A stretch of DNA of 64,000 nucleotides from Pseudomonadota bacterium (GTDB taxonomy: Bacteria; Pseudomonadota; Alphaproteobacteria; CACIAM-22H2). The translations under genes were made by a program, and so were the position numbers. Below, piece by piece: positions 4,661-21,788 of this stretch. Numbering within the stretch: position 1 is the stretch's first letter; the number at the start of each line of letters is the position of its first letter. The notes below the pieces were generated by a model that had not been told where the DNA came from, did no database searches, and saw only the letters and a list, made by a program, of their open reading frames with translations. The stretch covers positions 7,676 to 71,675 of the forward strand of contig JBEGVV010000024.1 of assembly GCA_041178225.1 (NCBI GenBank), read 5' to 3'.

Positions 4661-5699
4661 GCCGCGCGAGCGCGTCCCCGCATGGCTGTCGCTGCTCGCG
4701 CCGGCCTGCGCCCTCGCCGCGACCTTCGGCGCCGCCGCGGCGCTGATCGCGGCCGCGGGCGCGCCCGTCCGCCAGGGCTTCGAGGTGATGCTCGCGGGCG
4801 CGCTCGGCTCGGGCTTCGCCATCAACGAGATGCTGACCCGCGCGACGCCGCTGATCCTGACCGGGCTCGCGGTGTCCGTCGCGTTCCGCGCACGGCTCTG
4901 GAACATCGGCGCCGAGGGCCAGCTCTACATGGGCGCGCTCGCGGCGACCGCGCTCGGCACGGGCCTCGTCGACCTGCCCGCCTTCCTCCTGCTGCCGCTG
5001 CTCGTCGCCGCCGGCGCGCTCGCGGGCGCCGCGATGCTCGCCTGGCCCGCGCTGCTCAAGACCCGCCTCGGCGTCGACGAGGTCGTCGTCACGCTGCTGT
5101 CGAACTTCCTGGTCGCGCTTCTCGTGGCGATGCTGCTGGAGGGCCCGCTCAAGGACCCGATGGGCCTCGGCTGGCCGCAATCGGAGCCGGTCGTCGCCGC
5201 GGGCGAGCTGCCCAAGCTTGTCCCCGGCATGCGGCTGCACGCTGGATTCGTCCTCGCGCTGGTGCTCGCGCTGGCGACGTGGATCGTCATGTCGGGCACG
5301 ACGCTCGGCCTGCGCATCCGCGCGGTCGGGCTCAACGCCGTCGCGGCGCGCTTCGCCGGCATCGGCGTCGGGCGCACGATCCTGTGGACCGCGCTGCTCT
5401 CCGGCGGCCTCGCCGGCATCGCCGGCGTGAGCGAGGTCGCGGGCCTCAAGGGCAACCTCACGACCGACCTGTCGCCCGGCTTCGGCTATGCCGGCATCGT
5501 GGTCGCGACGCTCGCGCGGCTGCATCCCGGCGGCGTCGTGCTGTCGGCCATCTTCGTCGCCGGGATCTTCGTCGGCGCCGACGCGATGAGCCGCGGCGTC
5601 GGCGTGCCCAGCTACATCGCCGACGTCATCGTCGCCGCGGCGCTGCTGAGCATGCTCGTCGCGCTCCTCTTCCTGCGCTACCGCGTGAGCCGCCGATGA
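4650..5699 (+). CDS. ABC transporter permease (BMP/branched-chain-type, first of two)
   Basis: 349 aa, multi-TM and hydrophobic. Overlaps the ATPase stop by 11 nt and overlaps the next permease start by ATGA. Confidence 0.8.
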   Translation: MRLEPRERVPAWLSLLAPACALAATFGAAAALIAAAGAPVRQGFEVMLAGALGSGFAINEMLTRATPLILTGLAVSVAFRARLWNIGAEGQLYMGALAATALGTGLVDLPAFLLLPLLVAAGALAGAAMLAWPALLKTRLGVDEVVVTLLSNFLVALLVAMLLEGPLKDPMGLGWPQSEPVVAAGELPKLVPGMRLHAGFVLALVLALATWIVMSGTTLGLRIRAVGLNAVAARFAGIGVGRTILWTALLSGGLAGIAGVSEVAGLKGNLTTDLSPGFGYAGIVVATLARLHPGGVVLSAIFVAGIFVGADAMSRGVGVPSYIADVIVAAALLSMLVALLFLRYRVSRR

Positions 5700-6658
5700 T
5701 CCCGGCCATCCCCTGGGAAGCCATCGAGCTCCTCGCGCAGGCCAGCCTATGGGTGGCGGCGGTGCGCATCGCGACGCCGCTCGTGTTCGGCACGCTGGGC
5801 GAGCTCATCTGCGAGCGTGCCGGCGTGCTCAACCTCGGCATCGAGGGGATCATGGTCGTCGGCGCGCTGGTCGGCTGGTTCGCCGTCCACCAGGGCGCGG
5901 ACCTCTGGACCGGCGTGCTGCTCGCCGCGCTCGCGGGCGCGGCCTTCGGCCTGCTGCAGGCGCTGCTCACCGTGCCCCTGGCGCTCAGCCAGCACGTCGC
6001 GGGGATCGGCGTCACGCTGCTCGCGACCAGCCTCTCCTACTACGCCTACCGCCTCGCCTTCCCGAAGGTGACGACGCCGCCGCGCATCGAGACCTTCAAG
6101 CCGGTCGCGGTGCCCTGGCTGAGCGAGATCCCGGTGGTCGGGCCGGCGGTCTTCGTCCAGACGCCGCTCACCTACCTCGCGCTCGGCGCGGTCGTGGTCG
6201 TGGCGTGGTTCCTGCACCGCACGCCCGCGGGCCTCGCGCTGCGCATGGTCGGCGAGAACCCGGAGGCCGCGGAGGCCCAGGGCATCGACGTGATCCGCAC
6301 GCGCATCGCCGCGGTCTGCGCCGGCTCGGCGCTGATGGCGGTCGGCGGCGCGTTCCTGACGATGTCGGCCTTCGACGCCTTCTACTTCGGCATGGTGAAC
6401 GGCCGCGGCTGGATCTGCATCGCGCTGGTGGTGTTCGCGAGCTGGAACCCGCTCAAGGCGCTGTTCGGCGCGCTGCTCTTCGCCGCGCTCGACGCCTGGC
6501 AGCTGCGCCTCCAGCAGGTCGTCGGCGGCGACGTGCCCTACCAGGTCTTCCTGATGATGCCCTACGCGCTGAGCATCCTCGCCCTGGTCGTCATGTCGCG
6601 GCGCGCCGCCAGCCCGCGTGCGCTGATGGCCCCATACGTGAAGGGGGAGAGGCGATGA
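5696..6658 (+). CDS. ABC transporter permease (second of two)
   Basis: Starts MIPAIPWEAIELLAQASLWVAAV at an ATG overlapping the upstream stop (ATGA). 320 aa and hydrophobic. It is in the frame of track ORF 4682..6658, whose upstream part is an artefact. Confidence 0.8.
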   Translation: MIPAIPWEAIELLAQASLWVAAVRIATPLVFGTLGELICERAGVLNLGIEGIMVVGALVGWFAVHQGADLWTGVLLAALAGAAFGLLQALLTVPLALSQHVAGIGVTLLATSLSYYAYRLAFPKVTTPPRIETFKPVAVPWLSEIPVVGPAVFVQTPLTYLALGAVVVVAWFLHRTPAGLALRMVGENPEAAEAQGIDVIRTRIAAVCAGSALMAVGGAFLTMSAFDAFYFGMVNGRGWICIALVVFASWNPLKALFGALLFAALDAWQLRLQQVVGGDVPYQVFLMMPYALSILALVVMSRRAASPRALMAPYVKGERR

Positions 6659-7935
6659 TGGACCTCGTGGTCCGCGGCGCGGCGCTGCCCGATGGCCGCA
6701 AGGGCATGGACATCGGCGTGCGCGACGGGCGCATCGTCGCCGTGGAGCCGCGCCTCGCGGCCACGGGACGCGAGGAGATCGACGCGGGCGGCATGCTCGT
6801 CTCGCCGCCCTTCGTCGACGCCCATTTCCACATGGACGCGACGCTGTCGCTCGGCCTGCCGCGGCTCAACCGCTCGGGCACGCTGCTCGAGGGCATCGCG
6901 CTCTGGGGCGAGCTCAAGCCGACGCTGACGCAGGAAGCCGTCGTCGCCCGCGCCATGGCCTATTGCGACTGGGCCGCCGCGCAGGGACTGCTGGCGATAC
7001 GCAGCCATGTCGACGTCTGCGACGAGCGGCTGCTCGCGGTCGACGCGCTGCTCGAGGTCAGGCGCCGCGTCAGGCCGTACATCGACCTGCAGCTCGTCGC
7101 CTTCCCGCAGGACGGCGTGTTCCGCTACCCGCGCGCGATGGAGCTGCTGCGCGCGGCGCTCGACCGCGGCGTCGACGTCGTCGGCGGCATCCCGCATTTC
7201 GAGCGCACCATGGCCGAGGGCGCGCGTTCCGTCCGCGCGCTATGCGAGCTCGCGGCCGAGCGGGGCCTGCGCGTCGACATGCATTGCGACGAGACCGACG
7301 ACCCGATGTCGCGCCACGTCGAGACGCTGGCCTTCGAGGCGCAGCGCCTCGGCCTGCAGGGACGCGTCGTCGGCTCGCACCTCACCTCGATGCACAGCAT
7401 GGACAACTACTACGTCTCCAAGCTGGTGCCGCTGATGGCCGAGGCGGGCCTCGGCGTGGTCGCCAACCCGCTCATCAACATCTCGATCCAGGGCCGGCAC
7501 GACAGCTACCCGAAGCGGCGCGGCATGACCCGGGTGCCCGAGCTGATGGCGGCCGGGCTGACGGTCGCCTTCGGCCACGACTGCGTGATGGACCCCTGGT
7601 ACAGCCTCGGCACCGGGGACATGCTCGAGGTCGCCCAGATGGGCGTGCATGTCGCGCAGATGACCGGGCTCGACGCGATGGGTGCCTGCTTCGACGCCGT
7701 CACCTGCAACGCGGCGCGCCTGCTCGGCCTCGAGGGCTACGGGATCGAGCCGGGGTGCAACGCCGACCTCGTCCTGCTCGAGGCGCGCGACAAGGTGGAG
7801 GCGATCCGGACCCGCGCCGCGAGGCTCGCCGTCCTGCGCCGTGGCCGGGTCATCTCGCGCGCGCCGGCCCGGCGCGCGACGCTCGCCCTCGAGGGGCGGC
7901 CCGGGACGGTCGATTTCCTGCACCCGCGAGGCTGA
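6655..7935 (+). CDS. codA: Cytosine deaminase (amidohydrolase superfamily; CodA-type enzymes can also act as creatinine deaminases)
   Basis: Strong resemblance to E. coli CodA along the whole length (PPFVDAHFHMD, GTLLEGIALWGELK, HVDVCDERLLAVDALLEV, DLQLVAFPQDG, GGIPHFE, HCDETDDPMSRHVET, HSMDNYY, ANPLINISIQGRHDSYPKRRGMTRV, FGHDCVMDPWY). The ATG overlaps the permease stop. Confidence 0.85.
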   Translation: MMDLVVRGAALPDGRKGMDIGVRDGRIVAVEPRLAATGREEIDAGGMLVSPPFVDAHFHMDATLSLGLPRLNRSGTLLEGIALWGELKPTLTQEAVVARAMAYCDWAAAQGLLAIRSHVDVCDERLLAVDALLEVRRRVRPYIDLQLVAFPQDGVFRYPRAMELLRAALDRGVDVVGGIPHFERTMAEGARSVRALCELAAERGLRVDMHCDETDDPMSRHVETLAFEAQRLGLQGRVVGSHLTSMHSMDNYYVSKLVPLMAEAGLGVVANPLINISIQGRHDSYPKRRGMTRVPELMAAGLTVAFGHDCVMDPWYSLGTGDMLEVAQMGVHVAQMTGLDAMGACFDAVTCNAARLLGLEGYGIEPGCNADLVLLEARDKVEAIRTRAARLAVLRRGRVISRAPARRATLALEGRPGTVDFLHPRG

Positions 7936-8320: not shown

Positions 8321-10348
8321 TCAGGATTCGGATGACCTGCGCCGGCCCGATCGCCGGCCCCGCCCGGCGCCGCCGCCATCGGCCGCCGGGGTCGCCGCCG
8401 GCAGGGCGATGCGCGTGGCAAGCCGCGCATAGGGATCCTCGGCATGGGGGATGGCCATGGCCGACACGAAATGGCGCTGGAAGTCCGGCTCGATGGCGGT
8501 CTCGACCTTCTCGATCCTGCGGACCAGGGCCTCGATCTCGCCCCGCGACCTGGCGTCGAGCAGCGCGATCCGCGCCCCCGTCCCCGCGGCGTTGCCGGCC
8601 GAGCCCACCCGGTCGGGATCGCAATCCGGGATCAGGCCGAGCGCCATCGCGTAGACCGGGTCGATATGGCTGCCGAAGGCGCCCGCCAGGGTGATCCGGT
8701 CGGGCGCCTCGATGCCGTAGCGGTCCATGAGCAGCCGCGCCCCGGCATGCAGCGCGGCCTTGGCCAGCTGGATCGCCCTTATGTCGGCCTGGGTGATGGC
8801 GATGCGCGGCCCCTCCTCGCGCAGCACGTAGCTGAAGGTCCGCCCCTCGGCGACGATGCGCGGGCTGCGCGCGGCGAGCGCGCCATCGATCGTGCCGTCG
8901 CGCGCGACGATGCCCGAGAGATGCATCTCCGCGATCGCCTCGATGATCCCCGACCCGCAGATCCCGGTGACGCCCGAGCGCGCGGTCGCCGCGGCGAAGC
9001 CGGGGTCGTCGGACCAGAGCGGCGAGCCGATCACCTGGAAGCGCGGCTCGAGGGTCTCGCGGTCGATGCGCAGCCGCTCGATCGCGCCGGGCGCGGCGCG
9101 CTGGCCGCAGGAGATCTGCGCCCCCTCGAAGGCCGGCCCGGTGGGAGAGGAGCAGGCGAGCAGCCGCGCGCGGTTGCCGAGCACGAGCTCGGCGTTCGTG
9201 CCAACGTCGACCAGCAGCACGACCTCGTCGCGCAGGTGCGGCCCCTCGGAGAGCACGACGCCCGACGCGTCGGCGCCGACATGGCCGGCGATGCAGGGCA
9301 GCAGGTAGACGCGCGCGCCGGGCGCGAAGGCGAGGCCGACGTCGCGCGCCTCCACGTCGTGCCCGCCATCGATCGCCAGCGCGAAGGGCGCGCCGCCGAG
9401 CTCGGTCGGGTCCAGGCCGAGGAAGAGGTGGTGCATGATCGGGTTGCCGACCACCGTGGCCTCGAGGATGTCCTCCGGCGACAGCCCGGCCTCGCGCGTC
9501 ACCTCGGCCGCGAGGCCGGCGAGCGCCTCGCGCACCAGCGCCGTGAGCTCGCGGTCGCCGCCGGGATGCATCATCACGTAGGAGACCCGGCTCATCAGGT
9601 CCTCGCCGAGCCGGATCTGCGGGTTCATCGCGCCCGCGGAGGCGAGCACGTCGCCGGTGGCGAGGTCGCAGAGATGCGCGGCGATCGTGGTCGAGCCGAT
9701 GTCGACCGCGAGCCCGTGGGCACGCTCGCGCAGGCCGGGCCAGAGCGCGACGATGTCGCGGCCGAGGCGCACGGCGGCGGTGACGCGCCAGCCGCCCGCG
9801 CGCAGCGTGCGCTGGAGCGAGGCGAGGATCGCGGGGCCGGCGGCGAGCCCCTTCAGGCCCCATTGCGCCTCCAGCGCGTCGAGCAGCCGGCGCAGGTCGC
9901 TCGACGGATCGTGCATGTCGGGCTCGGCGACCTCGACGTAGTGCAGGCGCACGACCGGGTCGACCGCGATCGCCCGCGCATCCGCCTCCTTGCGCACGAC
10001 CTGGCGATGGATCTGGCTCTCGGGCGGCACGTCGGCGAGCACGTCGCCGCATATGCGCGCCTGGCAGCCCAGGCGCCGCGCACCGTCGAGCCCGCCGCGC
10101 CGCTCCGCGTGGCGAAGCTCCGTCGCCTCGCGCGGGCCAGCATTGGCGGCGCGGGATTCGAGCCCGAGCTTGGGGAAGCTGCCCTCGGCCACGTCGACCT
10201 TGCAGCGCCCGCATATGCCGCGCCCCGCGCACACGGAATCGAGGTCGACGCCGAGGGCGCGCGCCGCATCGAGCAGGCTGGTGCCGTCGGCAAAGCGTCC
10301 CCTGCGCCCGGATGGCGTGAAGACGACGAGATGGTCCTGCGACGACAT
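8321..10348 (-). CDS. RACo-type reductive activator of corrinoid proteins (N-terminal 2Fe-2S ferredoxin plus ASKHA-fold ATPase, COG3894/DUF4445)
   Basis: Starts MSSQDHLVVFTPSGRRGRFADGTSLLDAARALGVDLDSVCAGRGICGRCKV (plant-type ferredoxin Cys motif), followed by a long ASKHA ATPase region (LAVDIGSTTIAAHL..., ICGSGIIEAIAEM...). The 100-aa Arg-rich upstream extension in the track ORF is rejected. Last gene of the corrinoid operon. Confidence 0.8.
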   Translation of the reverse strand: MSSQDHLVVFTPSGRRGRFADGTSLLDAARALGVDLDSVCAGRGICGRCKVDVAEGSFPKLGLESRAANAGPREATELRHAERRGGLDGARRLGCQARICGDVLADVPPESQIHRQVVRKEADARAIAVDPVVRLHYVEVAEPDMHDPSSDLRRLLDALEAQWGLKGLAAGPAILASLQRTLRAGGWRVTAAVRLGRDIVALWPGLRERAHGLAVDIGSTTIAAHLCDLATGDVLASAGAMNPQIRLGEDLMSRVSYVMMHPGGDRELTALVREALAGLAAEVTREAGLSPEDILEATVVGNPIMHHLFLGLDPTELGGAPFALAIDGGHDVEARDVGLAFAPGARVYLLPCIAGHVGADASGVVLSEGPHLRDEVVLLVDVGTNAELVLGNRARLLACSSPTGPAFEGAQISCGQRAAPGAIERLRIDRETLEPRFQVIGSPLWSDDPGFAAATARSGVTGICGSGIIEAIAEMHLSGIVARDGTIDGALAARSPRIVAEGRTFSYVLREEGPRIAITQADIRAIQLAKAALHAGARLLMDRYGIEAPDRITLAGAFGSHIDPVYAMALGLIPDCDPDRVGSAGNAAGTGARIALLDARSRGEIEALVRRIEKVETAIEPDFQRHFVSAMAIPHAEDPYARLATRIALPAATPAADGGGAGRGRRSGRRRSSES

Positions 10349-10362: not shown

Positions 10363-10671
10363 TCAGCCCTTCGCCGGCTCGCGCCCGCCAGCGGCGACGA
10401 GCGCGGCGAGCCGCGCGTCGTCGTAGTCGCGCTCGAAGGCGGCCGCGGCCTCGGCCGCCGCGGCCTCGAGGTCGTCGCCGCAGGGAACGGGCTCGGCGCG
10501 GCGCCACTCCGCCAGGTAGGCGTCGGTCTCGCGCGCGCCGCCGCGCATCGCCGCGCGGTCGATCGCGTCCTGGAAGCGCTGCGGCAGCTCGCGCTTCGCG
10601 TTCGCGCGCCCCGCCTTCGCGATCACCTGGGCAGGGATGTCGCGCCACCAGATCACCGTCAGCTGCGCCAT
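10363..10671 (-). CDS. Small conserved hypothetical protein (about 102 aa), often seen in corrinoid/methyltransferase clusters; possibly 'virulence factor' small-protein family
   Basis: MAQLTVIWWRDIPAQVIAKAGRANAKRELPQRFQDAIDRAAMRGG...EPVPCGDDLEAAAAEAAAAFERDYDD. The ATG at 10669-10671 overlaps the DUF1638 3' end, and there is a 14-bp gap to the RACo start. The family assignment is from memory and tentative. Confidence 0.5.
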   Translation of the reverse strand: MAQLTVIWWRDIPAQVIAKAGRANAKRELPQRFQDAIDRAAMRGGARETDAYLAEWRRAEPVPCGDDLEAAAAEAAAAFERDYDDARLAALVAAGGREPAKG

Positions 10672-11297
10672 GGCATGCCTCCGGGAAGCGTGGCGCCGGC
10701 GAGGAAGCGCGCGATGCCGCCGAGGCCAGTGGGCCGCACCTCCAGCGCGAGGCCGAGGCGGCCTGCCGCGGCGGCCGCGGCGTCGCGCAGCGCCGGGTCG
10801 TCGGCCTGCGCGAGGTAGACCACGCGCCGGTAGTTGCCGAAATAGTCGGGGAGCAGCTCGGGGTGGCGGTCGAGGCCGAGGCCGCGGATGACCAGCGCCT
10901 CGAAATGCCTGACCAGGTAGTCGGTCAGGTAGAAGGTGCCGGGCTCGGCGTCGTGCAGCGCCGCGAACTCCGCCTCTCCGGCATAGAACTCGTAGCAATG
11001 CGCGCCATCGATGCGCTCCACGCCCTCCTCCGCGAGCACGCGGTCGAGCATGCCGCCCGTCCCGCAATCGCCATAGAGGCAGAGCACGCGCTCGAAGCTC
11101 CCGCGCGCCTCGCGGATCCTGCCGCGCACCGCCTCGGGGATCCGCTGCGGGCGGTTATGCAGGTCGGCGGGCAGGCAGGCGAGCTCGACATGGCCCCAGC
11201 CATTGAGGCGGACCACCGCGAGCACCTCGCGCGCGAGCGCGCCGCAGGCGATGACGAGCGTACGCGGCGGGCCCGGATCCGCGCCGTCCGCGCTCAT
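10659..11297 (-). CDS. DUF1638 domain protein (accessory protein commonly encoded beside corrinoid proteins)
   Basis: MSADGADPGPPRTLVIACGALAREVLAVV...LCLYGDCGTGGMLDRVL...AHCYEFY... The start overlaps the corrinoid-protein stop by ATGA. Confidence 0.7.
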   Translation of the reverse strand: MSADGADPGPPRTLVIACGALAREVLAVVRLNGWGHVELACLPADLHNRPQRIPEAVRGRIREARGSFERVLCLYGDCGTGGMLDRVLAEEGVERIDGAHCYEFYAGEAEFAALHDAEPGTFYLTDYLVRHFEALVIRGLGLDRHPELLPDYFGNYRRVVYLAQADDPALRDAAAAAAGRLGLALEVRPTGLGGIARFLAGATLPGGMPWRS

Positions 11298-11989
11298 CCC
11301 GCCGCGCGCTGGTTGTGGCGGCGGCGGATGAGGTCCTTCGCGGTCTCCACCGTCACCGCGGCGTCGCGGCAATAGGCGTCGGCGCCGACCTGGCGCGCGA
11401 AGTCCTCGTTGAGGGGCGCGCCGCCGACGAGGACGATGTAGTCGTCGCGGATGCCCTTCTCCTTCATCGTGTCGATGACGACCTTCATGTAGGGCATCGT
11501 GGTCGTGAGCAGCGCCGACATGCCGATGATGTCCGGCTTGTGCTCCTCGAGGGCGGCCAGGTACTTCTCCACGGGATTGTTGATCCCGAGGTCGATCACC
11601 TCGAAGCCGGCGCCCTCCATCATCATGCAGACGAGGTTCTTGCCGATGTCGTGGATGTCACCCTTGACCGTGCCGATCACCATCTTGCCGATCTTCGGCG
11701 CGCCGGTCTCCGCGAGGAGCGGGCGCAGGATGGCCATCCCCGCCTTCATCGCGTTGGCGGAGAGCAGCACCTCCGGCACGAACAGGATGCCGTCGCGGAA
11801 ATCCTCGCCGACGATGCGCATGCCCTCCACGAGGGCCTTGGTCAGGACGTCGTAGGGCGTCCACCTGCGCGAGAGCAGGATCCGCACGCCCTGCTCGATC
11901 TCCTCCTTGAGGCCGTCATAGAGGTCGTCGTGCATCTGCTGCACGAGGTCGTCGTCGCCAAGCGCGTTGAGGTCGATTTCGTCCGACAT
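11294..11989 (-). CDS. Corrinoid (cobalamin-binding) protein of the methyltransferase-associated MtgC/MtbC/MttC type
   Basis: MSDEIDLNALGDDDLVQQMHDDLYDG... is the N-terminal B12-binding-2 helical cap. It is followed by a Rossmann B12-binding domain with the DxHxxG-like motif (GTVKGDIHDIGKNLV) and GMSALLTTTMPYMK. The 65-aa upstream extension in the track ORF is rejected. Confidence 0.8.
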   Translation of the reverse strand: MSDEIDLNALGDDDLVQQMHDDLYDGLKEEIEQGVRILLSRRWTPYDVLTKALVEGMRIVGEDFRDGILFVPEVLLSANAMKAGMAILRPLLAETGAPKIGKMVIGTVKGDIHDIGKNLVCMMMEGAGFEVIDLGINNPVEKYLAALEEHKPDIIGMSALLTTTMPYMKVVIDTMKEKGIRDDYIVLVGGAPLNEDFARQVGADAYCRDAAVTVETAKDLIRRRHNQRAAG

Positions 11990-12155
11990 GGTCGATAGCC
12001 ACCTGCCTGTGGACCGGGTGGATGTTTCTAGCCCAGCGATAAGCGGCTGTCGCGCGGTTTGCGTCGCCGACGCTTCCGGCTGCCGGGCGTTTCCGCCATG
12101 ATCACGCACGGTAAGGCCGGCGCGTCGCCGGCCGGCAAGCGGGGGAACACAGGGC

Positions 12156-14567
12156 ATGAAATCCCATGTGCGCGTCGTGGTCATCGGCGGTGGCGTGGTC
12201 GGCGCAAGCGTCCTCTACCACCTGACCAAGATCGGCTGGACCGACGCGATGCTGCTGGAGAAGCACGAGCTCACCTCGGGCTCGACCTGGCACGCGGCGG
12301 CCAGCGTCCACACCTACAACTCGGACGCCAACGTCTCGAAGCTGCAGAAGTACACGATCGACCTCTACCGCGAGATCGAGGCGATCTCCGGCCAGTCCTG
12401 CGGCATCCATGCCACCGGCAACATGGTCGTCGCCGCCAACCAGACGGTGCTCGACAACATCCGGATGATGCACAGCCGGGGCAAGTACCTCGGCCTCGAG
12501 ATGGAGCTCATCTCGCCAGAGGAGGCGCGGAAGCTCAACCCGCTGATCGAGCCATCGGAGTTCCTCGGCGCGCTGTGGCGCAAGGACGGCGGCCATGTCG
12601 ACCCCAACGGCGTCACGCAGGCCTACGCGATCGCCGCGCGCAAGGCGGGCGCGGAGGTGCACCGCTTCACGATGGTGAAGGAACTGCACCAGCGGCCGGA
12701 CGGCTCCTGGCGCGTCGTCACCGACAAGGGCGACGTGATCGCCGAGCACGTCGTCAACGCCGGCGGCCTCTGGGCCCGCGAGGTCGGCCGGATGGCCGGC
12801 GTCGAGCTGCCCGTGCTGGCGATGGAGCACATGTACATCGTCACCGAGGAGATGCCCGAGGTCGTGGCCCTCGAGCGCGAGCTGCTGCCGACCACCGACT
12901 ACTCCGGCGAGATCTACATGCGCCAGGAGGGCAAGGGCGTCCTCATGGGCACCTACGAGCGCGACTGCCGCGTCTGGTCCCCGGACACCACGCCGTGGGA
13001 CTTCAACATGCAGCTGCTGCCCGACGACCTCGACCGGCTCAGCCCGCATCTCGAGATCGGCTTCCGCCACTTCCCGGCGATCGGCCGCGCGGGCATCAAG
13101 AAGGTCGTGAACGGCCCCTTCACCTTCGCGCCAGACGGCAACCCGCTGGTCGGCCCGGTGCGCGGGCTGCGCAACTTCTGGAGCGCCTGCGGCGTCATGG
13201 CGGGCTTCGCCCAGGGCGGCGGCGTCGGCCTCGCCCTCTCGCGCTGGATGGAGCATGGCGAACCAGGCGCCGACCTCTTCGCGATGGACGTCTCGCGCTT
13301 CGGCAGCTACGCCACGCCGCGCTACACCCACGTGAAGGTGCAGGAGAACTACCAGCGCCGCTTCCGCATCGCCTTCCCGAACGAGGAGCTGCCGGCGGCG
13401 CGGCCGCTGCGCCGCACGCCGGTCTACGACCGGCTCAAGTCGCGCGGAGCGGTGTTCGGCGCCTCCTTCGGCCTCGAGACGGCGCTGTGGTACGCGCCTG
13501 AGGGAATGGAGGCGGCGGAGACGCCGACCTATCGCCGCTCCAACGCCTTCCCGGTCGTGCGCGAGGAATGCCTCGCCGTGCGCAACGACGTCGGCATCAT
13601 GGAGATCTCCGGCTTCGGCAAGTACGAGGTGTCGGGGCCCGGCGCCGAGGCCTGGCTCGACCACCTGCTCGCGTCGCGCATCCCGAAGCCCGGGCGCATG
13701 GTGCTCGCGCCGATGCTCAACGAGCGCGGCACGATCATGGGCGACTTCTCCCTGGCCCGCCTCGCCGCCGATCGCTTCCTGATGGTCGGCTCGGGCGCGG
13801 CGGAGGTCTTCCACATGCGCTGGTTCGAGCGCATCGGGATCCCGGCGGGCGTCCATGTCCGGCCGCTCCCCGGCGCCCTCACCGGCTTCATGGTCGCCGG
13901 CCCCCGCTCCAGGGAACTGCTCCAGCGCCTCGTGCGCGAGGACATCTCCAACGCCGCGTTCCGCTTCTTCGCCGTGCGCGAGATGGCGGTCGGGATGGTC
14001 CCCGCGATCGTCGCGCGCGCCAGCTACACCGGCGACCTCGGCTACGAGATCTGGACGACGCCGGACTTCCAGATGTCGCTGCACGAGGCGCTGGTCGAGG
14101 CGGGCAAGGATCTGGGCCTGCGCCATTTCGGCAACCGCGCGCTGATGTCGCTGCGGCTCGAGAAGGGCTATGGCGCCTTCCTGCGCGAGTTCCGCCCCGA
14201 CTACACGCCGGTGGAGAGCGGGCTCGACCGCTTCGTCGCCTACGACAAGCCCGGCTTCGTCGGGCGCGAGGCCGCGCTCAGGGACCGCGCGACGCCGCCG
14301 ACGCGCCGCCTCGTGCCGCTGGTGGTCGACACCGACGTCGAGGTCGTCGGCTACGAATCGATCCTCAAGGGTGGCGCGCCCGTCGGCCAGGTCACCTCGG
14401 GCGGCTACGCGCACTGGGCCGGCAAGAGCATGGCGATGGGCTACGTGGCCGCCGAGCACGCGGTCGACGGCGCGGAGTTCGAGATCCAGATCTTCGAGCA
14501 TGTCCGCAAGGCGCGCATCGCGATGACCCCGCTCTTCGACGCCAATGGCGGGCGACAGCGCAGCTGA
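12156..14567 (+). CDS. Dimethylglycine/sarcosine dehydrogenase-like flavoenzyme (FAD amine oxidoreductase with C-terminal GcvT-like THF-binding aminomethyltransferase domain), paralog 1
   Basis: 803 aa. Begins with the dinucleotide fold MKSHVRVVVIGGGVVGASVLYHL. SGSTWHAAA matches the covalent-FAD His motif of DMGDH/SARDH. The C-terminal GcvT fold has FTGDLGYEIW and a YAHWAGKSMAMGYV-type tail. Diverges from the corrinoid operon across a 166-bp intergenic region. Confidence 0.85.
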   Translation: MKSHVRVVVIGGGVVGASVLYHLTKIGWTDAMLLEKHELTSGSTWHAAASVHTYNSDANVSKLQKYTIDLYREIEAISGQSCGIHATGNMVVAANQTVLDNIRMMHSRGKYLGLEMELISPEEARKLNPLIEPSEFLGALWRKDGGHVDPNGVTQAYAIAARKAGAEVHRFTMVKELHQRPDGSWRVVTDKGDVIAEHVVNAGGLWAREVGRMAGVELPVLAMEHMYIVTEEMPEVVALERELLPTTDYSGEIYMRQEGKGVLMGTYERDCRVWSPDTTPWDFNMQLLPDDLDRLSPHLEIGFRHFPAIGRAGIKKVVNGPFTFAPDGNPLVGPVRGLRNFWSACGVMAGFAQGGGVGLALSRWMEHGEPGADLFAMDVSRFGSYATPRYTHVKVQENYQRRFRIAFPNEELPAARPLRRTPVYDRLKSRGAVFGASFGLETALWYAPEGMEAAETPTYRRSNAFPVVREECLAVRNDVGIMEISGFGKYEVSGPGAEAWLDHLLASRIPKPGRMVLAPMLNERGTIMGDFSLARLAADRFLMVGSGAAEVFHMRWFERIGIPAGVHVRPLPGALTGFMVAGPRSRELLQRLVREDISNAAFRFFAVREMAVGMVPAIVARASYTGDLGYEIWTTPDFQMSLHEALVEAGKDLGLRHFGNRALMSLRLEKGYGAFLREFRPDYTPVESGLDRFVAYDKPGFVGREAALRDRATPPTRRLVPLVVDTDVEVVGYESILKGGAPVGQVTSGGYAHWAGKSMAMGYVAAEHAVDGAEFEIQIFEHVRKARIAMTPLFDANGGRQRS

Positions 14568-14991
14568 CGGCGCGGCCGCCGTCGCCACCGGCGGCTGCCT
14601 GTGCGGCGCGGTGCGCTTCGCGCTGCGCCCGCCGCTGCGGCAGGTCATCGCCTGCCATTGCGGGCAGTGCCGCCGCTGGCACGGCCATGTCGCCGCATAC
14701 ACGGCATGCGCCGACGCCGACCTGTCCTTCGAGAGCGACAGCGGCCTCGCCTGGTTCCGGTCCTCCGACGTCGCGCGACGCGGCTTCTGCCGGGAATGCG
14801 GCTCGTCGCTGTTCTGGAAGCGCCATGGATCGGACCGCATCTCGGTCGCGGCAGGCGCGCTCGACGGCCCCACCGGGCTCGCGACGACGCTGCAGATCTT
14901 CGTCGCCGACAAGGGCGACTACTACCGCCTCGATCCCGCGACGCCGTCGCGCGGCGGGACCGGCGAGGCCAGCGAGGGGGACGACGCATGA
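14545..14991 (+). CDS. GFA family protein (glutathione-dependent formaldehyde-activating enzyme / CENP-V fold)
   Basis: Cys zinc-site pattern CLCGAV...CHCGQCRRWHG...CRECGSSLFW is characteristic of GFA. Overlaps the DMGDH 3' end by 23 nt, and its stop overlaps the next gene's start. Confidence 0.7.
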   Translation: MAGDSAADGAAAVATGGCLCGAVRFALRPPLRQVIACHCGQCRRWHGHVAAYTACADADLSFESDSGLAWFRSSDVARRGFCRECGSSLFWKRHGSDRISVAAGALDGPTGLATTLQIFVADKGDYYRLDPATPSRGGTGEASEGDDA

Positions 14992-16238
14992 CGGGCGTGT
15001 TCAAGGATCCGCGCAAGCGCGCCTACCTCAACCCCGAGGGCGCCGACCGGCCGCTCCGCAGCCCGGTCCCGCGCTCGACGCTGCTCGCCGCCCGCGCGTG
15101 GCGCAAGCGGCGCCTCGTCGAGCAGGTCGTCGCGCATGACTGCGCCGCCATCCTGCTCTACGACCCGGTCAACATCCGCTACGCGCTCGACGTCACCAAC
15201 ATGCAGCTCTGGATGACGCACAACCCGTCGCACTACGCGGTGGTCTGCGCGGACGGGCACGCGATCGACTTCGAGTACGGCAAGTCCGAGCACCTCGCGA
15301 GGGGGTTCGAGACGATCGACGAGGTCCGCACCGCGCGGACATGGTTCTACTTCTCCGCCGGGGCGCGGCTGCACGAGCGCGTCGAGCTCTGGGCGGACGA
15401 GATCGTCGACATCCTTCGCGAGCGGGGCGGCGGCAACATGCGCCTCGCCGCCGACAAGCTCGAGATGGAGGGCGTCGACGCGCTGCGCCGGCGCGGCGTC
15501 ACGCTCGTCGAGGGACAGGAGCTCACCGAGCACGCGCGCAAGATAAAGAGCGCCGACGAGATCGAGCTGATGAAGTGGACGGTGCGCGTATGCGAGGCCG
15601 GGATGGCGCGGATGTACGAGCATTCGCTGCCTGGCCGGACCGAGAACGAGATCTGGGCGGAGCTGCACTTCGAGAACATCCGCTCCGGCGGGGAGTGGCT
15701 TGAATCCCGCCTCCTCGCCTCGGGCCCGCGCACGAACCCCTGGTTCCAGGAGAGCTCCGACCGGGTCTGCGAGGCCGGCGACATGCTGGCCTTCGACACC
15801 GACATGATCGGCCCCTATGGCTATTGCGCCGACCTCTCCCGCTCCTGGACCATCGGCCATGTGCGCATGACGCCCGAGCAGCGGTCGCTCTACGCGGCCG
15901 CGGTCGACCAGATCGAGCACAACGTGGCGATCCTCCGCCCGGGCATGACCTGCCGCGAGTTCGACGAGAAGAGCTGGCGCATACCCGCGAAGTACCAGGC
16001 GCGCCGCTATTCGGCGGCGCTGCACGGCGTGGGCCTCGCCGACGAGTGGCCCTCGGTGCCGACGCATGTCGACTTCGCGCGCGCCTATCCCTCGGTGTTC
16101 GAGGAGAACATGGTGCTCTGCGTCGAGGCCCTGATCGGCGAGGAGGGCGGGCGCGAATGCGTCAAGCTCGAGACGCAGGTCCTGGTCACCGCCAACGGCC
16201 CGGTGCGCCTCGACAGCTTCCCCTGGGAAGCGGACTGA
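14988..16238 (+). CDS. M24-family creatinase-fold hydrolase (creatinase / ectoine hydrolase DoeA / DddP-like; exact specificity unknown)
   Basis: 416 aa. The N-terminal creatinase-N-like region is followed by an M24 pita-bread domain (DTDMIGPYGYCADLSRSW, HGVGL, VLCVEALIGEEGG, ETQVLVTANG). Its ATG overlaps the GFA stop, so the two are translationally coupled. Confidence 0.75.
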   Translation: MTGVFKDPRKRAYLNPEGADRPLRSPVPRSTLLAARAWRKRRLVEQVVAHDCAAILLYDPVNIRYALDVTNMQLWMTHNPSHYAVVCADGHAIDFEYGKSEHLARGFETIDEVRTARTWFYFSAGARLHERVELWADEIVDILRERGGGNMRLAADKLEMEGVDALRRRGVTLVEGQELTEHARKIKSADEIELMKWTVRVCEAGMARMYEHSLPGRTENEIWAELHFENIRSGGEWLESRLLASGPRTNPWFQESSDRVCEAGDMLAFDTDMIGPYGYCADLSRSWTIGHVRMTPEQRSLYAAAVDQIEHNVAILRPGMTCREFDEKSWRIPAKYQARRYSAALHGVGLADEWPSVPTHVDFARAYPSVFEENMVLCVEALIGEEGGRECVKLETQVLVTANGPVRLDSFPWEAD

Positions 16239-16258
16239 CGGGGACGCTCGGCGCGGCC

Positions 16259-18263
<2,005 letters not shown>

Positions 18264-18271
<8 letters not shown>

Positions 18272-19100
18272 CTTCGGACGCCTCGCGCAGCCCGGTGGCG
18301 AGGAAGTTGAAGCCGACCACCAGCGAGGACACGGCGAGCGCGGGGATCAGCGTCATGTGCGGCCAGACGAAGATCGTGCCGTAGCTCTCCTTGATCATGC
18401 TGCCCCAGTCGGGGTCGGGCGGCGGCAGGCCGATGCCGAGGAAGCCGAGGACGCCGATGGCGATCACCGTGTATCCGAGGCGCAGGAAGAAATCGACGAT
18501 CAGCGGCCCGCGCGCGTTCGGCAGGATCTCGGCAAGCAGCACGAACCATGTCGGCTCGCCGCGCATGCGCGCCGCGGCCACGTAGTCGCGGTTCTTCACG
18601 TCGAGCGTCACCGCGCGCACGATGCGGGCGATGATCGGGGCCTGCGTCACCGTCACGACGGCGATGATGTTGAAGGCCGAGGCGCCGAAGCGCGCGATGA
18701 CGATCAGGTAGAGGATGATCTTGGGGAAGGCGAGCAGCGTGTCGCCGACGCGCATGAGGATGGAATCGACCGCGCCGCCCTTGTAGCCGGCGACCAGCCC
18801 GAGGATCGTGCCCAGCATCGCCGCGCCGAGCACCGCGGCCGGCGCCACGGTCAGCACCGTGCGCGCGCCCCACATCAGGCGCGAGAGGATGTCGCGCCCG
18901 AGCTGGTCGACGCCCAGCCAGTTCGCCGAGGTCGGGTAGGGATAGGCGATGAGCGCCGGGTCGATGCGGTTCGGCGGGTATGGCGCGATCCAGGGCGCCA
19001 GCAGCCCCATCGCCGCCCAGAACAGGACGATCGCGGCGCCCACGCAGCCGACCGGGGAGCGCCCGAGCAGCGCGATCCATGCCGCGGGCCGCGCCCTCAT
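18264..19100 (-). CDS. ABC transporter permease (DppC-like)
   Basis: Starts MRARPAAWIALLGRSPVGCVGAAIVLFWAAMGLLAPWIAPYPPNRIDP. 278 aa and hydrophobic. Overlaps the upstream permease stop and the downstream ATPase start. Confidence 0.8.
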
Positions 19101-20053
19101 ATGCGGATCCTCGGGTCGAGCTTCATGTAGCCGAGGTCGCCGAGGAGCTGGGTCAGCATCGTCACCGTGACGGCGACGAGCGCGCCGGCCTCGACGACGG
19201 CGATGTCCTTGGCGAGCGCGGCCTCGAGCATCATCCGGCCGAAGCCGGGATAGGCGAAGAGCGTCTCGACGACGACCAGCCCGGAGACGAGGTAGTTGAG
19301 CTGCAGCAGGATCACGGTGAACGGCGTGATCAGCGCGTTGCGCATCGCGTGCCGCGTCACCACGCGACCGAAGGGCATGCCCTTCAGCACGGCCGTGCGC
19401 ACGAAGGGCTGGCGCATCACCTCGACCATCGACGCCCGGATCATCGAGATAAGGTATCCGGCGTCGTAGAGCGTCACGACCGCGACGGGCAGCACGAACT
19501 GGATCCATACCGGCCACTCGGGCGAGGCGCGCAGCGGGGACGTGCCGGGCAGCACGCCCAGCCAGACGACGAAGACCGCGAGCATGAACACGCCCATCGC
19601 GAATTCCGGGATGGACGCGCAGACCGAGGCGAAGACGGAGATGCCGCGGTCGAGCGGCGAGCGCTCGCGCATGCCCGCGAGCACGCCGAGCGCCACCGAG
19701 AGCGGCACGATGACCGCGAAGCAGATCGCCGCCAGCAGCAGCGTGTTGCCCAGCCTGTCGAGCAGGACGTCGGCGACGGGCTGGCGGTAGATCACCGACG
19801 TGCCGAGGTCGCCGCGCAGGACGTTGCCGATGTACTCGGCGTAGCGGACGAGCAGCGGCCGGTCGAGGCCCATCTCGCGGAACAGGTGGTCGACCTGCTC
19901 CTGCGAGGCGTAGGGCCCGAGCAGCTTGCGCGCGACGTCGCCGGGCGTGAGTTCGTTGAGGGCGAAGACGAGGAACGTCACCGCCAGCAGCGTGAGGACG
20001 ATGTTCAGCGACTGCCGGAGGAGATAACGCGACACGCGACGCCCCGAGACCAC
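19097..20053 (-). CDS. ABC transporter permease (DppB-like)
   Basis: MVSGRRVSRYLLRQSLNIVLTLLAVTFLVFALNELTPGDVA... with the binding-protein-dependent transport EAA-like region. Confidence 0.8.
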   Translation of the reverse strand: MVSGRRVSRYLLRQSLNIVLTLLAVTFLVFALNELTPGDVARKLLGPYASQEQVDHLFREMGLDRPLLVRYAEYIGNVLRGDLGTSVIYRQPVADVLLDRLGNTLLLAAICFAVIVPLSVALGVLAGMRERSPLDRGISVFASVCASIPEFAMGVFMLAVFVVWLGVLPGTSPLRASPEWPVWIQFVLPVAVVTLYDAGYLISMIRASMVEVMRQPFVRTAVLKGMPFGRVVTRHAMRNALITPFTVILLQLNYLVSGLVVVETLFAYPGFGRMMLEAALAKDIAVVEAGALVAVTVTMLTQLLGDLGYMKLDPRIRI

Positions 20054-20117
20054 GCCGCGCGCAGGCCGCCACCGCCGCGGGCCCGAAGCCCGCGGCGGTG
20101 GCTGCGCGCGACCTGGA

Positions 20118-21788
20118 TCAGCCCTCGATCCAGACTTCCCGGAACTCGATGTAGGCGGTGGGGTGGATCTTGTACCCCTTCACCTTCTTGTCCGTGTAGT
20201 TGAACAGGGCGCGCCAGAGCGGCACGACCGCGGGGCCGTCCTCGAGCATGATGCGCTCGAGCTTGGCCACCACAGCGCGGCGCTTCTCGACGTCGAGGTA
20301 GCCCTCGGCCTCGGCGAGCAGCGCGTCGAACTCCTTGTTCGACCAGTTGGACTCGTTCCACGCCGCGCCCGAGCGGTAGGCGAGGCCGAGCACCATGACG
20401 CCCAGCGGGCGATGGGCCCAGGTGGTGAAGCCGAAGGGCACCTTGGTCCAGATGTCCCAGTACTGGGCCGAGGGCATCACGTTGATCTTCACGCGGATGC
20501 CCGCTTCCTTCCACTGCTCGACCATCGTCTGGACGGCGAGGAGCTCCCAGTCCGGCTGGGGACGGCAGGCGATCTCCGTGTCGATGCCGTTCGGGTAGCC
20601 GGCCTCGGCCAGCAGCGCCTTGGCCTTGGCGACGTCGCGGCGCATGAAGCCGACATCGGCGTACTCGGGATGCACCTGCGCGACGTGGTGGTGCTCGCCG
20701 GGCTTGCCGAGGCCGCGATGCGCGACCTTGAGCACCGCCTCGGTGTCCGTGGCGTAGCGCAGCGCCTGGCGGACGCGCTTGTCGTCGAAGGGCTTGACCG
20801 GCTGCACGCGGGCGACGGCGGTATAGGCCGTGTCGACCGAGTTGATCTGGACATGCGGCAGGCGCTCGGCCGCGGGCAGCGCGGCGATCGCGCCCTGGTA
20901 GATCATGTCCACCTGGCGCGAGGCCAGCGCGGCGACCTGCGCCGCGCTGTCGTCGCCGAGGTCGATGACCTCGATGCGGTCGAGCCACGGGCCGCTGCCC
21001 CAGTACTTGTCCTTGCGCGCCGCCAGGACCGCGCGCTTCCCGACCTCGAGCTCGACGAGCTCGTAGGCGCCCGTGCCGTTCGAGCCGACGCCGAACTTGC
21101 CGCCCTCGGCCGGGTCGAGCATGTGCGCGGGATAGTGGAACATCGCCTCGGGGATGCCGAGGAAGGACGTCTTGCCGTTGATCTCGAAGGTGAAGTCGTC
21201 GACCTTGCGGAAGGCGTTGGCGTCCCAGAGGCGGAACGACACGCGCTTCTTCTGGGTCTTCGGGTCGATCTCGTCGAGCTCGAAGTTCTCGAGCAGGAAG
21301 GCGCGCAGCAGGCCGACGGTCGAGGAACCGGTCGCCGGCTCGAGCATGCGCTTCATGTTCCAGATCGCGTCGTCGGCGTTGAACGGCCTGCCGCCCTTGC
21401 GCCAGTTGGCGTCGCGCCGCAGCGAGATCTTCCACGACTTGAGGTCGGGGCTCGCCTCCCACTTCTCGACGAGGCCGGGGCGCGTGATGTTGTCGACGCC
21501 GGTATAGGTCAGGTACTCGACGGTCTGGCGCGCGACATTGGTCGCCTCGATCCAGGAATAGGTATGCGGGCTGGAGAGGTCCTGCACGCGCATGCCGAGG
21601 CGCAGCGTGCCGCCCTTGCGCGGCGCGCCCTGCGCCATCGCGGGCTCGGGCAGGCCGGCCATCGAGTAGGCTGCGCCGGCACCCACGCCCAGCAGCGTGG
21701 CGATGCGAAGGAACTCGCGGCGCTCGAGCTTGCCGTCGGCCATCTCGCGGCCGGCGGAGGTGACGAGCGGATGGATCTTGTCTGTCAT
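20118..21788 (-). CDS. ABC transporter substrate-binding protein, family 5 (DppA/OppA/opine/nickel type), Tat signal
   Basis: Twin-arginine motif RREFLRIATLLGVGAGAAY. About 556 aa with family-5 SBP-like features. The start may instead be the second Met (MADGK, about 21743). Confidence 0.8.
   Translation of the reverse strand: MTDKIHPLVTSAGREMADGKLERREFLRIATLLGVGAGAAYSMAGLPEPAMAQGAPRKGGTLRLGMRVQDLSSPHTYSWIEATNVARQTVEYLTYTGVDNITRPGLVEKWEASPDLKSWKISLRRDANWRKGGRPFNADDAIWNMKRMLEPATGSSTVGLLRAFLLENFELDEIDPKTQKKRVSFRLWDANAFRKVDDFTFEINGKTSFLGIPEAMFHYPAHMLDPAEGGKFGVGSNGTGAYELVELEVGKRAVLAARKDKYWGSGPWLDRIEVIDLGDDSAAQVAALASRQVDMIYQGAIAALPAAERLPHVQINSVDTAYTAVARVQPVKPFDDKRVRQALRYATDTEAVLKVAHRGLGKPGEHHHVAQVHPEYADVGFMRRDVAKAKALLAEAGYPNGIDTEIACRPQPDWELLAVQTMVEQWKEAGIRVKINVMPSAQYWDIWTKVPFGFTTWAHRPLGVMVLGLAYRSGAAWNESNWSNKEFDALLAEAEGYLDVEKRRAVVAKLERIMLEDGPAVVPLWRALFNYTDKKVKGYKIHPTAYIEFREVWIEG

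Follow-up and report, generated by a model that had tools for sequence, protein, structure and literature searches.

A DddP-like M24 protein clade beside predicted betaine demethylases in non-marine bacteria

According to the literature on dimethylsulfoniopropionate (DMSP), dddP ranks with the DMSP-lyase genes that are most abundant in ocean metagenomes, and the native function of its product has been questioned. In the enzyme of Roseobacter denitrificans (RdDddP) the metal ligands are D295, D297, D307, H371, E406 and E421, with Y366 and D377 as candidate bases; its chemistry expels the beta-sulfonium of DMSP, and fungal DddPs that are 32-50% identical to RdDddP have been found experimentally active (PMC4108388). 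A Trp and a Tyr of DddP bind the sulfonium, and the marine enzyme is kinetically weak, with a Km of 14-17 mM (PMC5395565). Marine dddP has been reported beside murein transglycosylase, glutamine synthetase and nitrogen-regulator genes (Tawfik-laboratory preprint). Here we describe a DddP-like protein of the M24 family encoded by an alphaproteobacterium of the GTDB lineage CACIAM-22H2, within a 64,000-nucleotide stretch of DNA (assembly GCA_041178225.1, contig JBEGVV010000024.1, positions 7,676 to 71,675 of the forward strand) that we call the window. Its gene is the last of three; the others encode a flavoenzyme resembling dimethylglycine dehydrogenase (DMGDH) and a CENP-V/GFA-domain protein.

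The closest described counterparts of the surroundings of this gene are systems for betaine catabolism. The aerobic MtgBCD/split methionine synthase system of Ruegeria pomeroyi, described in 2025, includes DUF1638 and RamA proteins predicted to reactivate cobalamin; its pterin-binding component is encoded away from the locus, and genes for later demethylation steps are often co-located with the system, with no mention of an M24 partner or of GFA, PhnD-like or desaturase-like partners (PMC12478193). For proline-type betaines, the Hpb pathway (HpbD, HpbB1C1, HpbA) as published contains no M24 enzyme (PMC3950512). The gene for DddQ, another DMSP-lyase family, has been found beside DMGDH-like and mandelate-racemase-like genes, which led to the suggestion of proline/hydroxyproline betaine catabolism (bioRxiv 10.1101/161257).

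DddP was the best match of the window M24 protein in every library that we used. In Pfam the protein matched Peptidase_M24 (106 bits) and, weakly, Creatinase_N, and its best NCBIfam family was DddP (NF043017, 418.9 bits), the next being PepQ (~61 bits) and the ectoine hydrolase DoeA (~41 bits), with no creatinase-type family. Among PDB sequences the four DddP entries scored 334-353 bits (4b28, 353), prolidases at most 61 bits and creatinase 7yto 18.5 bits (E = 0.0062); identity to the solved DddPs was 41-43% over ~384 residues. An AlphaFold model (pLDDT 81, pTM 0.85) placed the protein in the same two-domain fold as the DddPs of R. denitrificans (4B28) and Ruegeria lacuscaerulensis (4RZY, 4S00, 4S01), with a Foldseek TM-score (TM) of 0.87 and a root-mean-square deviation of 2.1 A to all four, and a gap of 22 orders in E-value separated the DddPs from prolidases, creatinases and DoeA. 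The monomer model falls below pLDDT 50 only at residues 70-80, which hold Trp75, at 353-366, immediately after Asp352, and at 100-105. The active-site tunnel of DddP is completed by the partner subunit.

The first-pass annotation had favoured a creatinase that makes sarcosine from creatine and had named DoeA and DddP as further candidates. Creatinases (1CHM, 1KP0, 7YTO) share the creatinase-N and pita-bread fold (TM 0.71-0.73), but the identity was 16-19% and the 18.5 bits compare with 353 for DddP, so that this proposal finds no support. Creatinase is not known to have a metal site, its M24 ligands having been replaced, whereas the window protein keeps a full binuclear site with all DddP metal ligands. 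No conserved urea-handling genes were found near the M24 gene. DoeA/EutD (6TWK, 6YO9) has the same fold (TM 0.69) at 14-15% identity, and its two NCBIfam models reached 41.2 bits (NF038259, cut-off 575) and 22.1 bits (TIGR02993, cut-off 613), far below what that assignment would need; no other ectoine-utilisation genes were found. Xaa-Pro dipeptidases and aminopeptidase P, the label that the M24 protein carries in public annotation, share the M24B pita-bread domain and five canonical metal ligands, with ~20% identity for prolidases in the fold search. The PepQ, PepP and YpdF models gave 60.7, 56.9 and 37.9 bits against cut-offs of 630, 393 and 465, and the window protein has the extra ligand, the Trp and the Asp that are specific to DddP. 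The active-site residues therefore match DddP among the three named candidates, and the pattern of a generic Xaa-Pro aminopeptidase was not seen.

All nine functional residues of DddP have counterparts in the window protein: W75, D270, D272, D282, Y341, H346, D352, E380 and E395 correspond to W95, D295, D297, D307, Y366, H371, D377, E406 and E421, and none of the six ligands of the binuclear metal site is missing, the extra Asp (D272) included. Trp95, which aligns to the NMQLW motif, we take to be the onium-binding Trp of DddP. These nine residues are invariant in 21 of 21 members of the clade to which the window protein belongs, whereas the 44 representatives that we compared from the remaining DddP-like subfamilies retain W95 in 15 cases and D377 in 20. 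The DddP-like superfamily is large, with 312 clusters (50% identity) at E < 1e-30, and the clade is abundant, 7,933 of 8,000 scored candidates reaching E <= 1e-10. In a neighbour-joining tree the window protein grouped with all 20 sampled homologues from related loci and with representative P0121, in a clade that includes Pseudomonas, Mycobacterium and Rhodobacterales, while RdDddP and the R. lacuscaerulensis enzyme (RlDddP) fell in another clade with P0124. The NCBIfam DddP model scored P0121 at 403 bits and P0124, the representative closest to true DddP, at 530. Fourteen positions are fixed differently between the two clades, among them the new aromatics Y83 in place of Ala and W135, W197 and W330 in place of Phe, Cys and His, and the window protein is ~30 residues shorter at the N-terminus than DddP. 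By sequence, then, it appears to be DddP-like while scoring well below the equivalog cut-off of 600 and lying outside the DddP clade, as a member of what looks like a large and well-conserved sister clade. A literature search of partial coverage found no paper on this clade or on its association with demethylases. In R. pomeroyi proteomics the listed M24 proteins and creatinase were not induced by glycine betaine, choline or carnitine (PMC12478193); none of those M24 proteins could be tied to the window clade.

Such conservation would be expected if the M24 protein were a functional DMSP lyase (converting DMSP to dimethyl sulfide (DMS) and acrylate), with the neighbouring demethylases serving co-occurring nitrogenous osmolytes. 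The intact set of nine residues, the first rank of DddP in every library, an identity to RdDddP that lies inside the range of the active fungal enzymes and the co-occurrence of DddQ-like cupins with the clade all fit this reading, but the score of 419 bits against 600, the separation from validated DddPs and the 14 clade-specific substitutions, four of them to new aromatics, do not. The hosts of the clade also differ from those of DddP, being freshwater and soil metagenome-assembled genomes (MAGs), rhizobia, Pseudomonas and Mycobacterium. DMSP is scarce in freshwater, soil and similar non-marine habitats. Furthermore, no known enzyme of acrylate utilisation figures among the recurrent neighbour families of the M24 gene, where ECH, in four loci, is the sole candidate, and marine DddP, itself weak, has been argued to be promiscuous (Tawfik-laboratory preprint). 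We consider a native DMSP lyase unlikely.

The neighbours of M24 relatives with 56-96% identity were mapped in 80 genome loci (numbered L001 onwards with the other loci below), and context was counted as genes within 8 kb of the M24 gene in the 49 loci that have at least 4 kb on each side. MttB was found near the M24 gene in 21 of these and a Rieske oxygenase in 11, one or the other being present in 31; a flavin N-demethylase-like gene (DMGDH-like, DAO or FMN-type) occurred in 30, and at least one of the three kinds in 36 of 49. Across the 80 genomes and ~90 Rhizobium megaplasmids the clade adjoins the first betaine demethylase, either MttB with a corrinoid protein or a Rieske oxygenase with its reductase, together with flavin N-demethylases, and its neighbourhoods often also contain hydroxyproline or proline catabolic genes. 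The constant partner of the M24 clade is thus the betaine demethylation pathway, whichever enzyme performs the first demethylation. Other recurrent neighbours are enolase-superfamily proteins, OCD/mu-crystallin, 2-oxoglutarate (2OG) oxygenases and LysR regulators. The linked transporter varies by lineage (MFS, BCCT, ProU-type or Dpp).

Same-strand arrangements recur. The order M24-MtgC-DUF1638-MttB was found in nine loci, M24-MttB in Rhodobacterales, and a DMGDH-like gene followed after a short gap by M24 in ~10 loci. On megaplasmids of Rhizobium etli and Rhizobium leguminosarum the M24 gene (62-64% protein identity) is the third of a LysR-controlled Rieske-reductase-M24 operon (R. etli CIAT652 pC, L161, 9587-13242; R. 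leguminosarum WSM1325 pR132501, L162, 9578-13239), beside genes for 4-hydroxyproline epimerase, a ProU-type betaine importer, an FAD oxidoreductase, an aldehyde dehydrogenase (ALDH), a protein like dihydrodipicolinate synthase (DHDPS) and a GntR regulator. The R. etli plasmid also has putA and putR, ~6 kb upstream. Pseudomonas loci carry Rieske, ALDH, rubredoxin-reductase, DAO, EutQ-cupin and BCCT genes. Terrarubrum flagellatum (75% identity) has soxBDAG, DMGDH-like, DUF1289, bmt, MttB, enolase and M24 genes in this order on one strand, and a member of a remoter subfamily (40% identity) on S. meliloti pSymA stands in the order MttB, GlxA, M24, isochorismatase, betaine ABC transporter, enolase and Ldh_2. 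Between the DMGDH-like and M24 genes there is a slot that stands empty in six loci (L003, L018, L021, L045, L057 and L060) and filled in others, by the GFA gene in the window, by PhnD-like, DddQ-like and GFA genes in L008, by an enolase in L043 and L044, and by a regulator and a flavoprotein in L058.

This context also bears on the possibility that the M24 protein is a hydrolase freeing an N-methyl or imino acid for the flavoenzyme, be it an Xaa-Sar/Xaa-(N-methyl)Pro dipeptidase acting on peptides brought in by the adjacent Dpp transporter, an N-acyl-imino-acid amidohydrolase or a creatinase. Its M24 ancestry, with the five canonical peptidase ligands present, would suit such a role, as would the Dpp-type importer whose genes converge on M24 (20 of the 49 loci have a DppA homologue no more than 8 kb from it), the DMGDH-like gene directly upstream in ~10 loci, and genes of the window for a cytosine/creatinine-deaminase-like protein and hydantoinase A/B that are compatible with creatinine-type metabolism. 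Against this, the matches to creatinase and to the peptidase families are as poor as given above; Asp272, Trp75 and Asp352 are invariant in the clade and variable in other DddP-like subfamilies; RlDddP is inactive on Val-Pro (PMC5395565); and the transporter type differs between lineages. We regard a hydrolase as improbable. It could also be asked whether the trio is functionally integrated at all, or consists of neighbours in a mosaic, recombination-prone island whose overlaps reflect compact packing. What lies between the DMGDH-like and M24 genes does indeed vary, and in L090 the M24 gene is absent while the rest is kept. However, the association of M24 with demethylases extends across Alpha- and Gammaproteobacteria and across demethylase types, with same-strand tandems and 36 of 49 loci, and is therefore hard to account for without a shared pathway; we find the absence of any integration very unlikely.

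We lean slightly towards the view that the M24 protein is a DddP-type metalloenzyme that would abstract the C-alpha proton of a betaine-type substrate within a cobalamin-dependent methylated-amine island. In the scheme that we propose, an MttB enzyme would move the first methyl group of a quaternary amine (a betaine) onto the corrinoid protein, and the two DMGDH-like flavoenzymes of the window would strip the remaining N-methyl groups, passing the one-carbon (C1) units to tetrahydrofolate (THF) by means of their GcvT domains. The DddP-like enzyme would bind the carboxylate of a betaine-type zwitterion on its binuclear metal centre, and Asp352, or alternatively Tyr341, would take the C-alpha proton. 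If the onium group is beta to the carboxylate, the predicted outcome is a Hofmann-type beta-elimination, making the enzyme a lyase; if it is on C-alpha, as in proline-type betaines, the outcome would be a 2-epimerisation.

The substrate is most likely an N-methylated amino-acid betaine that is handled by the neighbouring demethylases. As a lead given by context, betaines of N-methylated proline, hydroxyproline and pipecolate type come first among the candidates, before DMSP or creatine, because the neighbours include hydroxyproline catabolic genes, putA (in R. etli), an OCD of Pyr2C-reductase type and Ldh_2, as well as pipecolate-oxidase-like DAO and enolase-superfamily genes. This lead agrees with two preprints from the Tawfik laboratory. 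The Hpb clusters (PMC3950512) and the described dddQ neighbourhood share with the M24 neighbourhoods the Rieske oxygenase and its reductase, enolase-superfamily proteins, a DMGDH-like or flavin demethylase, hydroxyproline epimerase, a protein like D-hydroxyproline dehydrogenase, a DHDPS-like protein and ALDH; putA (R. etli) and a DddQ-like cupin (some loci) are also found among the M24 neighbours. HpbM of the Paracoccus proline-betaine cluster was considered as a possible M24 enzyme and rejected, as it is a GroES-domain alcohol dehydrogenase.

Several points weigh against our preferred reading. The published pathways for proline and hydroxyproline betaines need and mention no M24 enzyme (PMC3950512), and the substrate of the clade is read from gene neighbourhood. 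In proline-type betaines the onium nitrogen is on C-alpha and there is no beta leaving group, so the epimerase alternative is forced and is something that we purely infer. The identity of 41-43% to RdDddP is, as noted, within the range of active DddPs. Thirteen of the 49 well-flanked loci have no demethylase within 8 kb, and the window is rich in transporters, many of them Dpp-type, so that the adjacency of such an importer is partly expected by chance. Finally, the neighbour-joining tree is crude and carries no support values.

What we consider worth keeping is that the closest-relative clade of DddP, with its catalytic apparatus apparently entire, is found in predicted betaine-demethylation operons of non-marine bacteria. 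It is possible, if rather doubtful, that DMSP cleavage was not the original activity of the DddP fold and that this widespread sister clade has the native role, as a metal-dependent lyase or epimerase that takes the C-alpha proton of N-betaines, probably those of proline, hydroxyproline or pipecolate type, beside a corrinoid/MttB or Rieske demethylase. If this is true, one ancestral betaine pathway would have given rise to both of the 'weak' marine families of DMSP lyase, DddP and DddQ, and the number of dddP-like genes in a metagenome from a non-marine setting could not be taken as a measure of DMS production. A clade with the full set of DddP catalytic residues in rhizobia, soil and lake bacteria makes the question of native function concrete and testable, and R. 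leguminosarum and R. etli are tractable hosts in which to ask, with few candidate substrates to try, what DddP-type enzymes evolved for. There is also a consequence for annotation, as thousands of clade members currently carry the label 'Xaa-Pro aminopeptidase' in public annotation. The locus moreover contributes to the account, still incomplete, of how betaines are broken down aerobically with the help of cobalamin, a route first described in 2025. A creatine-to-sarcosine module should not be propagated.

The three genes themselves required scrutiny, because the window has a G+C content of 72% and chance open reading frames (ORFs) are plentiful, with 48 of at least 80 aa between 9 and 20 kb. 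Third-position GC (GC3) was therefore scored per frame in 150-nt windows in addition to ORF coordinates. The DMGDH frame had a GC3 of 0.92-1.00 up to ~14480, the GFA frame 0.90-0.94 over 14540-14900, where the M24 frame reached only 0.56-0.68, and the M24 frame 0.90-1.00 from 14960 on. This clean switch between frames shows that all three ORFs are coding and that M24 starts at 14988; the DMGDH-like, GFA and M24 ORFs are all real genes, and the concern that the GFA ORF might be a frame artefact is removed. The M24 frame is open from a GTG at 14601, which was rejected as a start, the low GC3 upstream of 14988 marking this extension as an artefact. The N-terminus MTGVFKDP agrees, since alignments begin at residues 1-4 in most relatives, favouring the ATG at 14988, and a good match to a Shine-Dalgarno sequence, GAGGGGGA, lies upstream of it. 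No obvious Shine-Dalgarno sequence precedes the GFA ATG.

Sequence inspection placed the DMGDH-like stop codon (TGA) at 14565-14567 and that of the GFA gene (TGA) at 14989-14991. Both overlaps described by the first-pass annotation, that of the DMGDH-like 3' end with the GFA gene and that of the GFA stop with the M24 start codon, were seen (Table 1). The 23-nt overlap is robust, because the frame holds no alternative GFA start from the upstream stop (14527) to the conserved CLCG motif. A scan of 11800-16500 for promoters and terminators gave no signal above shuffle expectation, and the overlaps would suggest that the trio is co-translated. As a conserved overlapping unit, however, the trio did not hold up: both overlaps are retained only in near-identical relatives, namely L001/L082 (VGDA01000003.1 = Ga0194129_10002115, a Lake Tanganyika alphaproteobacterial MAG; 95-96% identical and fully syntenic from CodA to the desaturase-like gene) and L081 (Ga0255214_1001963, a JGI metagenome contig; products 99-100% identical across the VirF-to-GFA stretch). 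The M24 protein of L001 is 96% identical to that of the window, and L001 is the only one of the M24 loci L001, L008 and L013 with both overlaps. By its match to these lake and metagenome sequences, the window comes from an uncultured freshwater alphaproteobacterium. The trio is ordinary operon packing in a catabolic island; of the integrated module once proposed, a packed same-strand unit in a region for catabolism of N-methyl compounds stands, and the creatine-to-sarcosine role of M24 does not.

The GFA protein matched Pfam GFA (PF04828) with 70 bits (cut-off 24.3) and has seven invariant cysteines (C18, C20, C37, C39, C42, C82 and C85). It matched no NCBIfam family; its best PDB match, at 56 bits, was 8ajq, an uncharacterised CENP-V/GFA-domain protein for which our literature search found no citing paper, and the solved Paracoccus Gfa structures were not matched at E < 0.01. 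With the PGAP-annotated Rhizobium Gfa it shared 28% identity over 93 residues (33 bits). On these grounds orthology with Gfa was rejected. Gfa of Paracoccus and Rhizobium has in common with the window protein the GFA/CENP-V zinc-ribbon-like domain and conserved Cys ligands, but it has 190 aa compared with 148 aa, and the window gene has no adjacent fghA or flhA and different conserved neighbours. A hidden Markov model built from four orthologues and run over the 80 M24 loci found the GFA ORF in three (L001, L008 and L013), each time immediately ahead of the M24 gene; in L008 and L013 it is preceded by a gene for a DddQ-like cupin and not by one for DMGDH.

A search with the GFA alignment yielded 80 further loci from metagenomes, ~45 of them long enough to show neighbours, and most without recurrent context. 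The commonest recurrent setting was an FA_desaturase-like gene on the minus strand, one or two GFA copies and a PhnD-like gene, each partner occurring in 15-16 loci (L087, L089, L099, L106, L107, L113, L115, L124, L130, L137, L142, L149, L156, L157 and L159 show the association), and in several of them MttB or MtgC lies nearby. In the window the PhnD-like/desaturase-like pair is 8.5 kb away and coupled to MttB1. Among these loci, GFA has a DMGDH-like gene ahead of it in none but those of the window lineage and, non-adjacent, L090, and is followed by M24 only in L082, L116 and L118. By sequence and context the GFA protein thus appears to be a facultative accessory zinc protein of the island that travels mainly with the desaturase-like and PhnD-like pair and not specifically with the DMGDH-like gene, and the three together suggest an undescribed accessory module of MttB systems.

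The earlier proposal that the GFA protein is a glutathione-dependent formaldehyde-activating enzyme trapping formaldehyde leaked by the DMGDH-like enzyme fares poorly in this light, and we think it quite unlikely. The Pfam domain with both zinc-site Cys sets conserved, the overlap coupling to the DMGDH-like gene and the induction of formaldehyde detoxification by betaine demethylation in Paracoccus are consistent with it, but the protein is not a Gfa orthologue, is linked to M24 in only three of 80 loci and has other recurrent partners (FA_desaturase-like, PhnD-like, DddQ-like cupin and MttB). Moreover, the DMGDH-like enzyme has a THF-binding domain of its own with which to capture the C1 unit. 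No fghA or flhA was found among the scanned window ORFs, several ORFs having been left unscanned, nor among the recurrent neighbours of GFA in the 80 metagenome loci. Rhizobium plasmids do carry a true gfa-fghA pair at a distance of ~11 kb from M24, which could be read in favour of formaldehyde trapping nearby. The DddQ-like cupin (Pfam DMSP_lyase 90 bits; PDB DddQ 5cu1 and 4la2) is encoded directly upstream of GFA in L008 (~9151-9570), L013 (~8914-9528), L116/L118 (5453-5956) and L090 (5378-6025). In L008, L013, L116 and L118 a DddP-like M24 gene follows GFA, so that DddQ-like and DddP-like genes are separated only by GFA: two unrelated 'DMSP lyase' folds within one betaine-catabolic operon of non-marine bacteria.

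The assignment of the flavoenzyme to the DMGDH family was borne out. Paralog 1 has the Pfam architecture DAO, FAO_M, GCV_T and GCV_T_C and scored 577-579 bits against the solved rat and human DMGDH over residues 2-794, compared with 286 bits for Arthrobacter DMGO. It is, as judged from these matches, a THF-linked, FAD-dependent N-methyl demethylase of DMGDH type. It is 60% identical to paralog 2, and neither paralog reached an NCBIfam equivalog.

The trio lies inside a ~28-kb methylated-amine catabolic island built on an aerobic cobalamin-dependent methyltransferase system (Table 1), a context dominated by three MttB methyltransferases, a corrinoid protein and reactivation proteins that the first-pass annotation had passed over. 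The MtgC-like gene is divergent from the DMGDH-like gene, and its 231-aa form is conserved. MttB1, the PhnD-like gene and the desaturase-like gene overlap by ATGA and GTGA and are predicted to be translationally coupled. With the R. pomeroyi MtgBCD system the island shares an MttB-family methyltransferase, an MtgC-type corrinoid protein, RamA/RACo, DUF1638 and DMGDH-type demethylases; it differs in having three MttB paralogs and in that no pterin-binding domain (MtgD/MtgE) was found among the annotated window ORFs; this component may have its gene outside the locus, as it does in R. pomeroyi.

Table 1. Coordinates of the gene trio and of the surrounding island, in window positions.
Feature	Position	Strand	Remarks
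RACo/RamA-type reductive activator of corrinoid proteins (predicted)	8321-10348	-	Fer2 + ASKHA domains
PF13769 'Virulence_fact' small protein	10363-10671	-	conserved together with RACo
DUF1638 protein, predicted corrinoid reactivation	10659-11297	-	role from PMC12478193
MtgC-like corrinoid protein	11294-11989	-	B12-binding + B12-binding_2; MtgC model 205 bits
DMGDH-like paralog 1	12156-14567	+	803 aa, ATG start; GC3 0.96, Pfam, PDB matches
Overlap of DMGDH-like 3' end and GFA 5' end	14545-14567	+	23 nt; also in L001
CENP-V/GFA-domain ORF	14545-14991	+	148 aa, ATG start; GC3 0.90-0.94, Pfam GFA
Overlap of GFA stop and M24 start	14988-14991	+	ATGA; also in L001
DddP-like M24 protein	14988-16238	+	416 aa, ATG start; profile, PDB-sequence, fold matches
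Dpp/Opp-type ABC importer	16259-21788	-	convergent on M24 gene, 20-nt gap
ABC importer, fused ATPase	16259-18271	-	
ABC importer, permeases	18264-19100, 19097-20053	-	
ABC importer, family-5 binding protein	20118-21788	-	
MttB1, non-pyrrolysine, predicted first demethylase of quaternary amine	22042-23463	+	MTTB 587 bits
PhnD-like protein without signal peptide	23460-24275	+	
FA_desaturase-like di-iron membrane protein	24272-25168	+	
PrpD/MmgE-like protein	25172-26494	-	
Enolase-superfamily protein	26514-27647	-	76% identity to neighbour family f13
Fe-alcohol dehydrogenase	27661-29109	-	
DMGDH-like paralog 2	29196-31604	+	second demethylation block
MttB2	31772-33136	+	
2OG-Fe(II) oxygenase	33140-34150	+	
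MttB3	34147-35706	+	

An Rfam scan of the whole window gave no match and no cobalamin riboswitch. Among the recurrent neighbour families of the M24 clade, the window has a homologue of the enolase family only; homologues of the DddQ-like cupin, FMN-type demethylase, MFS, Rieske and OCD families are absent. The window enolase is far from characterised structures, its best match being an uncharacterised Paracoccus protein at 141 bits, and orthology with HpbD was not supported. The pair of Fe-alcohol dehydrogenase and enolase is kept beside corrinoid and M24 genes in L022, L025 and L029-L031, and the pairing of DMGDH-like paralog 2 with the 2OG oxygenase is found in 11 related loci.

Outside the island, a BMP-family ABC transporter and a cytosine-deaminase-type amidohydrolase (805 bits to PRK07572) are encoded at 2041-7935 (plus strand), and hydantoinase A/B genes at 39776-43835 (plus strand). 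Taken together, these genes resemble a route from creatinine via N-methylhydantoin to sarcosine, and this likeness would be the sole contextual support for a creatine theme. A 642-aa ORF at 1-1929 (plus strand) runs off the window start; it has a GC3 of 0.95 and no match in Pfam or NCBIfam. The region 44633-63756 contains three more ABC systems with family-5 binding proteins, an N,N-dimethylformamidase-beta-like protein (50913-53201, minus strand), an Amidohydro_2 protein, an amidase, a pyridoxal phosphate (PLP) decarboxylase and an arylmalonate-decarboxylase-like gene.

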